49,182 nt of DNA, taken from assembly GCA_035285545.1 (NCBI GenBank), contig JAYKGY010000066.1, positions 1 through 49,182 of the forward strand, in the 5' to 3' direction. The notes under the pieces were generated by a model that saw only the letters and a program-made list of their open reading frames with translations, had not been told where the DNA came from and made no database searches. Each line of letters opens with the position of its first letter. The first letter of the stretch is position 1. This document shows positions 43,657 through 49,182 of this stretch, piece after piece. Position numbers and translations under genes: made by a program. Source of the DNA: Snowella sp. GTDB lineage: Bacteria > Cyanobacteriota > Cyanobacteriia > Cyanobacteriales > Microcystaceae.

Positions 43657-44220
43657 ATGGTACAAACCCCTTCTAAAATCTTAACCCTAGAAGCCTTTCT
43701 AGCTACTCCTGAAACTAAACCTGCCAGTGAATATATTGACGGTAAAATCATTCAAAAACCTATGCCTCAAGGTGAACATAGTACTATTCAAGGTGAATTA
43801 CTGATTGCCATTAATGCAGTTACTAAACCTCAAAAAATAGCACGAGCTTTTCCAGAACTACGATGTATTTTTGCCAATAGAGCGATTGTTCCAGATATTG
43901 CTGTTTTTTGCTGGGATAGGATTCCTCGTAATGAAGCGGGAGGGATTGCTAATCTTTTTGCGATCGCGCCTGACTGGATCATTGAAATTCTTTCTCCTGA
44001 ACAAAGTTCAACTCAAGTGATTGCTAAAATTCTCCATAGCCTCAAGCATGGAACCCAACTCGGTTGGTTAATTGATCCCAAGGAAAAAGCTATCTTTATT
44101 TTTTACCCTAATCAATCTCTCGACTGGATTGATCAACCAGAGCAATTACTTCCTGTCCCAGATTTTGCCAGTAATTTACAACTAACGTTAGAAGACATTT
44201 TTAATTGGTTATTAGAATAA
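43657..44220 (+). CDS. Uma2-family endonuclease
   Basis: PETKPASEYIDG, VPDIAV, PDWIIEILSP, GWLIDP. Confidence 0.92.
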   Translation: MVQTPSKILTLEAFLATPETKPASEYIDGKIIQKPMPQGEHSTIQGELLIAINAVTKPQKIARAFPELRCIFANRAIVPDIAVFCWDRIPRNEAGGIANLFAIAPDWIIEILSPEQSSTQVIAKILHSLKHGTQLGWLIDPKEKAIFIFYPNQSLDWIDQPEQLLPVPDFASNLQLTLEDIFNWLLE

Positions 44221-46347: not shown

Positions 46348-47145
46348 ATGACATTATCTATCCCTGTAGCAATTTTATGTGGCGGAAAAGGAACTCGTTT
46401 GCGTGAAGAAACAGAGTTTCGTCCAAAACCCATGATAAACGTAGGCGATCGCCCGATGATCTGGCACATCATGAAGACTTACGCTCATTTTGGATTCAAA
46501 GATTTTATGTTGTGTATGGGTTATAAGGGAGAACAAATCAGAGATTATTTCATTAATTATGACTGGAACCATAGTGATATATTGTTAGAGCTAGGGAACA
46601 AAAGTATTACTAAGTTGAATAGTGGTCACGATGAAGAAGATTGGAGATTGTGGTTAATCGATACTGGGCAAGAAACTTTAACAGGTGGAAGATTAAAGCG
46701 ATTAGCCCCCTATCTAGACAAAATTGGAACCGATCTTTTTTTAGCAACCTATGGGGATGGCGTGGCGGATGTCGATATTAAAGCCTTAGTTGACTATCAT
46801 AAAAGTCACGGTAAATTAGCAACAGTAACAGCCGTCCGTCCTCCCTCTCGTTTTGGCGAAATGGTTATTCAGGATCAACTGGTAGGCACTTTCAAAGAAA
46901 AGCCGCAAACTAGCGAAGGTTGGATCAATGGTGGTTATTTCGTTCTCCATCGAAAAGTTCTAGACCTAATTCAGGATGACAGCACTGTTTTTGAGGCTGA
47001 ACCATTACACATTCTGGCCGAAAAGGGAGAACTTGCTGTCTATCAGCATCAAGGTTTTTGGCAATGTATGGACACCTACCGAGAATTAGAACTTCTCAAT
47101 GATCTTCATCACAAGAATCAAGCTCCTTGGCAGGTGTGGCGATGA
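46348..47145 (+). CDS. rfbF: Glucose-1-phosphate cytidylyltransferase
   Basis: LCGGKGTRLREETEFRPKPM, TGGRLKR, TYGDGV, GFWQCMDT. Confidence 0.96.
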   Translation: MTLSIPVAILCGGKGTRLREETEFRPKPMINVGDRPMIWHIMKTYAHFGFKDFMLCMGYKGEQIRDYFINYDWNHSDILLELGNKSITKLNSGHDEEDWRLWLIDTGQETLTGGRLKRLAPYLDKIGTDLFLATYGDGVADVDIKALVDYHKSHGKLATVTAVRPPSRFGEMVIQDQLVGTFKEKPQTSEGWINGGYFVLHRKVLDLIQDDSTVFEAEPLHILAEKGELAVYQHQGFWQCMDTYRELELLNDLHHKNQAPWQVWR

Positions 47146-48233
47146 ATGTGAGTTTTTGGGAAGGAAAAAAAGTCTTCTTAACAGGACATACGGGATTTAA
47201 AGGATCTTGGCTTTCTACTTGGCTCTTAGAGCTAGGAGCGGAAGTTATTGGTCTGAGCTTACCGCCCAATACTCAACCCGCTTTATTTGAACAATTAGAA
47301 CTAGATAAACATCTCACCCATCATTTAGGGGATATTCGAGATGCTAATTTAGTTTCTAGACTTATCCAAGAATCCCAACCTGATATTGTTTTTCACCTAG
47401 CTGCTCAACCCTTGGTTAGGCTTTCCTATGTGGAACCTGTTGAGACATGGAATGCCAACGTCATGGGAACAATTCATGTCCTAGAAGCTCTCAGAAAAAT
47501 TAATCATCCTTGTGTTGGAATTTTTATTACAACCGATAAGTGTTACGAAAATCGAGAGTGGGTCTATGGATATCGAGAAAACGATCATTTAGGTGGACGG
47601 GATCCCTACAGCTCTAGTAAAGCAGGGGCCGAATTAGCGATCGCCTCTTGGAGAAATTCTTTTTTTAGTGATAGTAAATGCCCCGTTAAAATTGCTAGTG
47701 TCAGAGCAGGTAATGTAATTGGAGGCGGTGATTGGGCAAAGGATCGCATTGTCCCTGATGCTATCCGTTCCCTTCAAAAGAAAGAAAAAATTCCTGTTCG
47801 TAATCCCCAAGCCACCCGACCCTGGCAACACGTTTTAGAGCCATTAAGTGGCTATTTACTTTTAGCTGAAGAAATTTATCAGGCTCTAACTAAACATAAC
47901 TTAGAGAGATTAACTCAGCTTTGTACCGCCTTTAACTTTGGCCCATTGCTTAGTTCCAATAGAACAGTAGAAGATTTAGTTTTGGAAATACTGTGTCATT
48001 GGCCCGGAAATTGGCAAGATCAATCTGACCCCAATGCCCCCCATGAAGCGGGTTTACTTAATCTAGTAACGGACAAAGCCTACCATCAGTTGGGATGGCA
48101 ACCTCGTTGGAATTTTGAAACGACGATTAAGCGCACAGTTAATTGGTATTATCAAACCTTCGAGGATCCTTCAACAACCCCAGCGAATGTCTTAGCTGAT
48201 ATTGTGGCCTATTCCCAAGCTTTAATTCAATAA
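47142..48233 (+). CDS. rfbG: CDP-glucose 4,6-dehydratase
   Basis: TGHTGFKGSWL, HLAAQPLVR, TTDKCYEN, DPYSSSK and RPWQHVLEP; ATGA overlap with rfbF. Confidence 0.96.
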   Translation: MNVSFWEGKKVFLTGHTGFKGSWLSTWLLELGAEVIGLSLPPNTQPALFEQLELDKHLTHHLGDIRDANLVSRLIQESQPDIVFHLAAQPLVRLSYVEPVETWNANVMGTIHVLEALRKINHPCVGIFITTDKCYENREWVYGYRENDHLGGRDPYSSSKAGAELAIASWRNSFFSDSKCPVKIASVRAGNVIGGGDWAKDRIVPDAIRSLQKKEKIPVRNPQATRPWQHVLEPLSGYLLLAEEIYQALTKHNLERLTQLCTAFNFGPLLSSNRTVEDLVLEILCHWPGNWQDQSDPNAPHEAGLLNLVTDKAYHQLGWQPRWNFETTIKRTVNWYYQTFEDPSTTPANVLADIVAYSQALIQ

Positions 48234-48258
48234 ATTTTCAATTATTTCTAATGAAATT

Positions 48259-48453
48259 ATGAGCATTACGATTCTTAAAGAGGGCGATACCGTTCGCCTA
48301 CTACAGAGTGATATCCAAATTCCAGAAGGCGAACCCATTATTCTATTTACAAAAGAAGAAATGATCCAGCAAATCCAAGATGAATGGGTCAACTTACAAA
48401 TGCCCAGTTTTGTTCGGGATGATGAAGATGAAGATGGGGAGGAATTATTTTGA
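48259..48453 (+). CDS. Small acidic protein, putative antitoxin
   Basis: 64 aa with a very acidic C-terminus (DDEDEDGEELF). Its stop overlaps the start of the MazF-like ORF (TTGA). Confidence 0.6.
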   Translation: MSITILKEGDTVRLLQSDIQIPEGEPIILFTKEEMIQQIQDEWVNLQMPSFVRDDEDEDGEELF

Positions 48454-49182
48454 ATTTACAAGGTCAATTAGTCTATATCGTCTGGCCTTTTGCTGAAATA
48501 GAAAGCAGTAAAAAACGTCCTGCATTAATCTTAACCGAACCTGATTCCCAGGGAGATATCACTTTATTAAAGATCACGGGTAAGAGCAACTATGAAAATA
48601 GTCTTCCAATTACGCAAAAAGATTTAGCGTCTGGAATCCTTAAAAAAGACTCTTACATTCGTATTGATCGAATTATTTCTGTTCATCAATCTCAAATAAA
48701 AGGACTAGGAATTCAACTAAAATCTGAAAAATTAGCCGAAGTGCACCGTGCTTTGGTTTTATTAAATACCCGTCAATTTTCTCACCTCAAGCATCTTCAA
48801 AATAGACCAGCAATTGATCCTTTACGTCCCACTTTTTCAGAGGGAAGTGTTCCCTATGCAGGACGAGTATTCACTAGTGAGGAAGTAGAAGCGGCCATTT
48901 CTACTACTTTAGATTTTTGGTTAACCTTAGGTGTTGAAGGAGCAGCCTTTGAGAAAGAATTAGCTACTTTTTTAGGTGTTCATTACTCTTTAGCTGTTAA
49001 TTCAGGATCATCCGCTAATTTAATCGCCTTGAGTGCGTTAACTTCTCCTTTGATTGAAGAATCTAGAAGACTTAAAAAAGGAGATGAGGTTATTACCTGT
49101 GCCGCAGGATTTCCAACAACAGTCTCTCCAATCATTCAAAATGGCTGTATCCCAGTTTTTATTGATAATGACCCTGTTACCA
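48450..49182 (+). CDS. rfbH: Fusion of a MazF/PemK-like domain and RfbH (CDP-4-keto-6-deoxyglucose 3-dehydratase-like, DegT family), 3'-partial
   Basis: Translated by hand from TTG 48450 with no stop to the window end: MNLQGQLVYIVWPFAEIESSKKRPALIL...ITG...GILKKDSYIRIDRI...LKSEKLAEV, then VPYAGRVF...LDFWLTLG...VNSGSSANL...GDEVITCAAGFPTTVSPIIQNG. Confidence 0.85.
   Translation, partial: MNLQGQLVYIVWPFAEIESSKKRPALILTEPDSQGDITLLKITGKSNYENSLPITQKDLASGILKKDSYIRIDRIISVHQSQIKGLGIQLKSEKLAEVHRALVLLNTRQFSHLKHLQNRPAIDPLRPTFSEGSVPYAGRVFTSEEVEAAISTTLDFWLTLGVEGAAFEKELATFLGVHYSLAVNSGSSANLIALSALTSPLIEESRRLKKGDEVITCAAGFPTTVSPIIQNGCIPVFIDNDPVT

Follow-up and report, generated by a model that had tools for sequence, protein, structure and literature searches.

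A MazF-type toxin domain fused in frame to the dideoxyhexose enzyme RfbH in a cyanobacterial sugar operon

Can a toxin-type ribonuclease domain be a genuine part of a sugar-biosynthetic enzyme, and what would it be kept for? The question is raised by the 3′ end of a 49,182-nucleotide contig of Snowella sp. (JAYKGY010000066.1, one of the 151 contigs of assembly GCA_035285545.1), the whole of which is referred to here as the window. A preliminary description of this DNA proposed that a PemK-like domain runs without a stop from TTG 48450 into RfbH, the CDP-6-deoxy-D-xylo-4-hexulose-3-dehydrase (E1), behind a small antitoxin-like gene and inside an rfbF-rfbG-rfbH operon. The in-frame fusion of a MazF-type domain to RfbH, with a small coupled gene upstream of it, is real.

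The domain search suggested in that description matched both families in one frame. PemK_toxin (Pfam PF02452) aligns with residues 4-103 of the fusion (E 8.9e-8; 32.8 bits against a cut-off of 23.1; profile positions 2-106 of 109), and the fusion of the related locus L042 also lies above this cut-off, with 30.3 bits. DegT_DnrJ_EryC1 (Pfam) is found on residues 144-244 (E 4e-19), and residues 129-242 align with positions 32-144 of the NCBIfam RfbH profile NF011936. No stop separates the two parts, and the frame (48450-49181, 244 codons) stays open up to the contig end, which falls inside the gene. With the gene cut at residue 244, the RfbH fragment of the window reaches only 158.1 bits against NF011936, whose equivalog cut-off is 423; the full-length protein P0001, 93% identical, scores 624.8 bits, its residues 129-586 covering positions 32-438 of 440. 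The remaining 343 or so codons were sought in the window's own genome assembly and were not found. The N-terminal part does not qualify as a free-standing, single-domain MazF of about 110 amino acids; its frame continues into RfbH, and full-length relatives have 587-606 amino acids. The TTG start overlaps the stop codon (TGA 48451-48453) of the 64-amino-acid acidic open reading frame (ORF) as TTGA and is preceded by the Shine-Dalgarno-like GGGGAGGA, in position and character as first described. NTP_transferase and GDP_Man_Dehyd genes lie directly 5′ of the module, which bears out its placement in the operon; this order is repeated in L042 and L066-L068.

In a contig assembled from a metagenome, such a frame could also result from a chimeric join or from an indel error, and two circumstances would favour this explanation: the window is a whole contig of a 151-contig assembly, ending within the gene, and the sister genome G001 carries two 1-nucleotide insertions in the same region. 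The probability of such an artefact is nevertheless negligible, since independently assembled sequences of several origins show the same in-frame junction. The likely source run (X1), assembled a second time, has a contig matching 48427-49182 base for base, with 0 differences, and extending 2358 nucleotides past the window end. From another study (X2) comes a 682-nucleotide contig that spans 48234-48915 and differs by 45 substitutions, without gaps; a third study supplies a 236-nucleotide contig of an RNA library (X7) that spans 48578-48811, also without gaps. The contigs of these three runs and seven complete relatives are free of a stop or indel at the junction, and an assembly artefact is ruled out on these data. 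The X7 contig is a weak sign of transcription, since RNA libraries can carry DNA. Runs X3 and X2 contain only small parts of the stretch, and their pieces with conserved motifs are uninformative on habitat.

The survey of other genomes that had been proposed revealed the architecture to be widespread. A first search with residues 1-130, confined to long proteins, returned five full-length fusion proteins of 587-595 amino acids, 55-93% identical. A profile of the N-terminal 140 residues gave at least 51 fusion clusters at E<=1e-10, mostly of 587-606 amino acids; this is a lower bound, because only the 8000 candidates sharing most words were scored. Those clusters that bear a name are called only 'CDP-6-deoxy-D-xylo-4-hexulose-3-dehydrase'. 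A metagenome scan added nine loci, seven of them with a complete ORF of 587-601 amino acids, while L045 runs off its contig and L050 is frameshifted (in L050, 1393-2121, the shift lies at about codon 95 and the small ORF upstream is intact). Three further genomes with the module (L066-L068) were found among 401 of a picocyanobacterial family. A scan of genome contigs for the module yielded only the sister genome and one unrelated weak match.

The locus of the sister genome (L021, G001:C49, 1745-2234, minus strand; the same as L040, 5935-6426) shares the MazF-RfbH junction with the window. Its frame is broken by the two insertions, which are 72 nucleotides apart and reflect either a pseudogene or a sequencing error. 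This locus has no small ORF, and Gln stands at the position of the catalytic Arg; intact versions of the same type are P0004, L043, L046 and L047. A further side observation concerns L069 (G689:C12, 1089-1358, minus strand), where what is left of the small gene is frameshifted and adjoins transposase-like ORFs; no fusion gene stands beside it, and the locus looks like a decayed copy of the module.

A continuous frame could still yield two products, with RfbH made from an internal GTG (48741) or TTG (48753) and the MazF frame having lost its stop, the fusion being a by-product or unmade. Between codon 1 and the RfbH part these are the only in-frame starts (codons 98 and 102), and no in-frame ATG occurs there, as had been noticed at the outset. 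The two codons do lie close to where the stand-alone RfbH proteins start, but neither is conserved: G001 has GTT and ATT at these positions, the X2 and X7 contigs both carry 48743 G>T and 48755 G>A, which alter GTG98 and TTG102 alike, GTG98 is absent from L042, and L046 is devoid of ATG, GTG or TTG across codons 32-139. No purine-rich motif was found 5′ of GTG98 or TTG102, while GAGGA 5′ of the start codon is retained in G001, L042, L043, L046 and L047. Codon 1 is the sole position with a start codon in all six compared coding sequences. The junction frame, moreover, is open in the 51 or more clusters. Synthesis of RfbH solely from an internal start, by which the fusion was to have been refuted, is highly improbable, and the comparison shows the start of the MazF domain, codon 1, to be the predicted translation start of RfbH.

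The identity of the N-terminal domain was examined by profile comparison and structure prediction. A profile of 15 N-terminal regions retrieved S. aureus MazF from the PDB sequence set with E 0.0014-0.0025. In the alignment, the Arg of VRP corresponds to R23 (CGT 48516-48518) and the Thr of ITG to T43 (ACG 48576-48578), which we take to be the catalytic residues; both had been reported as retained, and both are. The C-terminal helices align as well, KMKEVDNALMI in S. aureus MazF with KLAEVHRALVL in the fusion. An AlphaFold2 (AF2) model of residues 1-140, built on 22 aligned sequences, has a predicted local distance difference test score (pLDDT) of 82 and a predicted template modelling score of 0.69, with strands at 6-10, 23-27, 36-43, 51-54, 59-61, 68-79 and 83-90 followed by a long helix at 92-117. 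The Foldseek matches listed for it are all MazF-type toxins (M. tuberculosis, S. aureus, B. subtilis and E. coli), with a probability of 1.00, E 1e-5 to 2.5e-4 and template modelling (TM) scores by target of 0.56-0.75. The N-terminal part is, by this model, a MazF-type β-barrel with its C-terminal helix, in agreement with the PemK fold first proposed. Of 54 members of the fusion family, 44 retain the Arg and 45 the Thr, and four more have Ser in place of Thr.

The model also indicates how the two proteins are joined. In the alignment, the long helix corresponds in its first half to the C-terminal helix of MazF and in its second half, NTRQFSHLKH, to the N-terminal helix of stand-alone RfbH. Stand-alone RfbH proteins of the same subfamily start M..(5-10 aa)..LK.EILRLTR.YS.L.H..RP; because they begin with the same motif, NTRQFSHLKH is regarded as RfbH's own N-terminal helix. 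The C-terminal helix of MazF and the N-terminal helix of RfbH are, in the predicted structure, merged into one. This joining helix and the MazF domain take the place of positions 1-31 of the RfbH profile.

The small acidic protein belongs to a family of its own, with 295 clusters at E<=0.001, mostly of 68 amino acids and all unnamed or 'hypothetical'; two of its records are from Cyanobium or Cyanobacteriota. The family shares the motif M(S/T)(I/L)T..(R/K).G....(V/L)L.....(L/I)PEG..(V/I).L(F/Y)T..E......LQMPSF(I/L/V)R(G/D)DEDE...(E/D)LF. Its AF2 model is poor (pLDDT 62), with strands at 3-8 and 11-17 forming a β-hairpin, a helix at 32-46 and an unstructured tail at 47-64. The small gene is present at nine of the 13 loci with visible upstream DNA (window, L042, L044, L045, L048, L050, L066, L067 and L068), where it overlaps the fusion start or sits within a few bases of it. 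The overlaps are of the TTGA, ATGA or GTGA type in the window, L042, L045, L048, L066 and L067, and TGATG or GTGA in L044 and L050; in L066-L068 there is a second overlap, between the small gene and the end of rfbG. The longest contigs of seven small-protein and fusion cluster pairs are equal in size, which gives indirect support to their co-location. In the genome samples, the small gene is rare, occurring in 1 of 401 genomes of the phylum, which is the window's own, and in 4 of 401 of the picocyanobacterial family, the fourth of these having only a remnant.

The term 'antitoxin-like', used for this gene in the preliminary description, holds for its small size, its acidity and the overlapping stop and start, and fails for family membership, as no antitoxin family was matched. 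Two candidate kinships were tried and rejected. The acidic, aromatic-ended tails resemble by eye those of the DUF2281-type antitoxins that accompany the nearest stand-alone MazF genes, but the profile test failed, with an hhalign probability of 0.2%. The pattern 'LPEG..V.L' is in register with AF2212-like proteins, but hhalign against two of them gave 2.8% and 0.6%, which is not significant and leaves this as a lead only. An Atlas search with the small protein gave scores of at most 0.78, and its antitoxin-named structural rows had TM scores of 0.34-0.36, below the bar.

The evolutionary record was followed in both domains. In a tree of the RfbH domain obtained by a quick method (FastTree, 85 rows, unrooted), the 17 fused rows are all members of a single 26-row clade with a Shimodaira-Hasegawa-like support of 99. 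This clade also holds eight rows labelled stand-alone, one of which (P0056) is a truncated fusion, and one row with another N-terminal extension. One origin of the fusion followed by several losses would be the simplest reading of this tree. The ratio of nonsynonymous to synonymous substitution rates (dN/dS; Nei-Gojobori, scripted) of the MazF core is 0.136 between the window and L042, 0.18 between L048 and L049, and 0.15-0.40 in five pairs of the clade in which Arg is replaced by Gln, whereas all comparisons of the RfbH part give 0.02-0.10. The MazF core is under purifying selection, and the two ranges (0.136-0.40 against 0.02-0.10) suggest a domain that is constrained, less tightly than the enzyme.

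The histories of the two parts also differ. Between the window (48450-48720) and L043 (4733-5000), the proportion of synonymous differences is 0.80, which is saturated, in the MazF core and 0.48 in RfbH, and a comparison of the window with G001 shows a jump in DNA identity near codon 88. These two observations point to recombination at the domain border, and suggest that the N-terminal domain is swapped as a cassette, with or without the small gene. The fusion subfamily (P0001 and relatives) has about 459 aligned residues in its RfbH part against about 403 in the canonical enzyme, which indicates an insertion of about 50 residues. E1 enzymes are distinguished by a His that replaces the Schiff-base Lys and by a Cys cluster for a 2Fe-2S centre; the strings SFYPPHHLTMGEGG and DCWCPSGKDNTC are present in P0001, in the region beyond the window end. 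As a side observation, the RfbH proteins P0006, P0011, P0012, P0014, P0018, P0049 and P0103 carry N-terminal extensions of 110-135 amino acids without a Pfam match. Those of P0012 and P0011 match the MazF-core profile weakly and in register (E 0.014 and 0.06, in a set of 155), and these extensions may be older, degenerate versions of the MazF fusion.

What the module does can be proposed from these comparisons. The reading to which we assign a probability of about 0.5 is that of a conserved toxin-antitoxin-like pair welded to RfbH in the CDP-dideoxyhexose operon, its MazF domain active and held off by the small protein. The small gene and the gene of the MazF-RfbH polypeptide of about 587 amino acids form a translationally coupled two-gene module within rfbF-rfbG-rfbH, and the MazF domain of the window's version would still bind and cut RNA. 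Free MazF and RfbH are both dimeric. The MazF domains of two chains would probably pair as a MazF-like dimer atop the RfbH dimer, and the disordered acidic tail of the small protein, DDEDEDGEELF, would fill the RNA groove in the manner of MazE-type tails. Both genes would depend on the rfb operon for their expression, there being no space for a separate promoter, and if expression of the operon were stopped or the small gene lost, a stable, tethered toxin would be left uninhibited. Such a module would have arisen once, in one RfbH subclade, where the MazF domain would have replaced the first few residues of RfbH, and would since have been lost or disabled several times. An active pair of this kind may stabilise the gene cluster or act as a defence switch, the two roles put forward when the locus was first described.

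Several observations weigh against an active pair. Arg is lost in 10 of the 54 fusions. Of the nine loci with the small gene, seven retain the Arg, while L045 has Tyr and L066 has Cys in its place; since these last two keep the small gene without Arg, the small protein is not strictly tied to an intact catalytic site. The four loci that lack the gene (L040, L043, L046 and L047) make up one clade with Gln at the Arg position, and the correlation between small gene and Arg is weak, because four loci of one clade amount to one evolutionary event. In this Arg-to-Gln clade, devoid of the small gene, the MazF core still shows the dN/dS of 0.15-0.40 given above, and its continued purifying selection suggests that, in some members at least, the domain does something other than cleave RNA. 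Searches in Pfam (with 6 and with 48 members) and NCBIfam, and a profile search of the PDB, matched the small protein to no antitoxin family. Classical type II modules regulate their own promoter, and no promoter-like site was found 5′ of the small ORF in the window, although the scan (9 sites against 10.0 expected from shuffled sequence) is weak evidence either way, its count being no higher than in the shuffled sequence. Finally, stand-alone RfbH proteins exist in the same subfamily, so RfbH does not need the MazF domain.

Much of this would equally be expected of a domesticated, non-toxic domain. Such a domain might help the enzyme to dimerise or assemble, regulate it by binding RNA or a ligand, or give a pathway partner a place to dock, and the small protein would be a regulatory subunit of RfbH. 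The selection on the Arg-to-Gln clade, the ten fusions without Arg, L045 and L066 with their small gene, the coupling of the pair to rfbG without space for its own promoter, and the position of the small protein outside the known antitoxin families are all in its favour. A precedent for a MazF-like domain in a multidomain, non-toxin role is provided by CalpT, in which it is joined to DUF2080 (bioRxiv 10.1101/2024.05.08.593097), and type II Gabija contains GajC with a split MazF-like domain (PMC13069673). CalpT and GajC resemble the fusion in having a MazF-like fold within a larger protein or system rather than as a free toxin, and differ from it in belonging to dedicated phage-defence systems, with neither a metabolic-enzyme fusion nor a pairing with the small protein described here. 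Domestication, on the other hand, does not readily account for the retention of Arg in 44 and of Thr or Ser in 49 of the 54 members, which is more than a purely structural role needs, nor for a small gene with stop/start overlap, acidic tail and aromatic C-terminus, the layout of a type II pair; and close stand-alone RfbH relatives work without the domain. Domestication is therefore a serious contender, to which we lend somewhat less weight than to the toxin pair. The two may both hold, in different lineages, and the family, judged by its sequences, looks like a series from the intact pair to a domain-only relic.

A more specific form of the active pair, an operon-embedded lock or guard, is put forward only as a speculative and rather unlikely proposal. 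The ribonuclease, stable and tethered to the surface-sugar enzyme, would be blocked only by the labile small protein encoded on the transcript that they share. This block would end on shut-off of rfb (for example by a phage halting host transcription), on deletion of the cluster upstream or on degradation of the small protein; the freed, still tethered ribonuclease would then arrest translation, tying survival to expression of the phage-receptor glycan cluster.

The closest known systems differ from the module in distinct ways. With MazEF and PemIK (Kid-Kis) it shares the PF02452 match, the MazF fold, Arg and Thr at the positions aligned with S. aureus MazF, and a small gene directly upstream with overlapping stop and start and an acidic tail holding an aromatic residue. 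Unlike them, its toxin domain is the N-terminus of a 587-amino-acid enzyme and not a free protein of about 110 amino acids, its partner is not MazE/AbrB, RHH, PHD or DUF2281 in the searches made, the pair sits inside a sugar operon with no promoter region of its own, and Arg is missing from some members. Stand-alone cyanobacterial MazF genes of 109-132 amino acids, with their own antitoxins, are related to the fused domain (E 1e-14 to 1e-17). In L052, L055, L056 and L058-L062, such stand-alone MazF genes follow DUF2281-type antitoxin genes with overlapping stop and start, and the antitoxins there have the strongly conserved tail SESSL.KDWL..EEDEAW..L.

As in RfbH/DdhC/AscC (E1), the full-length relatives pass the NCBIfam equivalog and the gene follows rfbF and rfbG; the fusion differs from these enzymes in the replaced first 31 profile positions and the approximately 55 extra residues of its subfamily. 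Other RfbH proteins carry extra domains at either end (SDR epimerase or RmlD-type; P0009, P0010, P0020, P0021 and P0111) or tolerate insertions, such as inteins with LAGLIDADG domains (P0024, P0025 and P0031), but there the added part is an enzyme of the same pathway or a selfish intein and not a toxin-type ribonuclease domain. P0038, in which phosphoglycerate kinase is joined to a partial DegT domain, may be a chimera.

According to Makarova et al. 2009 (PMC2701414), the Kid/CcdB/PemK/MazF toxin superfamily seems to have no further function in the cell. In open-access full text and bioRxiv, no literature naming MazF and RfbH together was found; the papers with MazF and DegT, judged by title and the start of the abstract, held no fusion, and nothing relevant was met for PemK domain fusions or for a 3-dehydrase with a toxin. 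The MazF-RfbH architecture is apparently undescribed, and may be listed without comment in domain-architecture databases.

The features of the locus are collected in Table 1, in which the name rfbF was assigned from family and operon context. An rfbG-like gene upstream of the module is also found in L042, L043, L046, L047, L066, L067 and L068.

Table 1. Coordinates of the operon genes and fusion parts in the window
Feature	Position	Strand	Evidence and remarks
rfbF-like gene (NTP-transferase; presumed glucose-1-phosphate cytidylyltransferase)	46348..47145	+	ORF; Pfam NTP_transferase E 2.2e-19; first operon gene
rfbG-like gene (NDP-sugar 4,6-dehydratase family)	47127..48233	+	ORF; Pfam GDP_Man_Dehyd E 6.3e-39, Epimerase E 9.6e-32; 19-nt overlap with rfbF
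Small acidic protein gene, 64 aa, candidate antitoxin or partner	48259..48453	+	ORF; C-terminus ...DDEDEDGEELF; without Pfam or NCBIfam match
Shine-Dalgarno-like GGGGAGGA	48436..48443	+	6 nt 5′ of TTG 48450
Predicted MazF/PemK-like β-barrel core, codons 1-91	48450..48722	+	Pfam PF02452; PDB profile match; AF2; Foldseek
Predicted joining helix, residues 92-117	48723..48800	+	AF2 single long helix; HMMER alignment to MazF C-terminal helix; stand-alone RfbH N-termini
RfbH part (CDP-6-deoxy-D-xylo-4-hexulose-3-dehydrase, E1), from residue 129	48834..49182	+	NF011936; ~343 codons beyond contig end

Some neighbouring genes deserve mention. Genes of the Uma2 family (putative restriction endonuclease; Pfam) lie directly 3′ of the fusion in L042 (4025-5353), and the window ORF at 43657-44220 has a likeness to Uma2 genes, judged by eye. 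Further downstream in L042 are an SDR epimerase, a FkbM methyltransferase and the N-terminal half of a transketolase, which hints at a modified or branched dideoxyhexose.

MazF-type toxins are usually regarded as small, free, toxin-only proteins. Here, a MazF domain is covalently joined to a core enzyme of dideoxyhexose synthesis, and selection has preserved it in many lineages of cyanobacteria. With it goes a dedicated small-protein family that is unnamed in databases and carried in public annotation as 'hypothetical protein'. If the domain is inactive, the family would offer a natural series of domestication, from the intact pair through loss of Arg with the partner kept to loss of both with the domain kept. 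If it is active, a toxin-antitoxin pair would be carried by a metabolic enzyme, linking RNA decay to the synthesis of cell-surface glycans, a main target of phages; and should the proposed lock or guard prove true, the module would represent a new way to stabilise or guard a biosynthetic island as well as a new antitoxin family.

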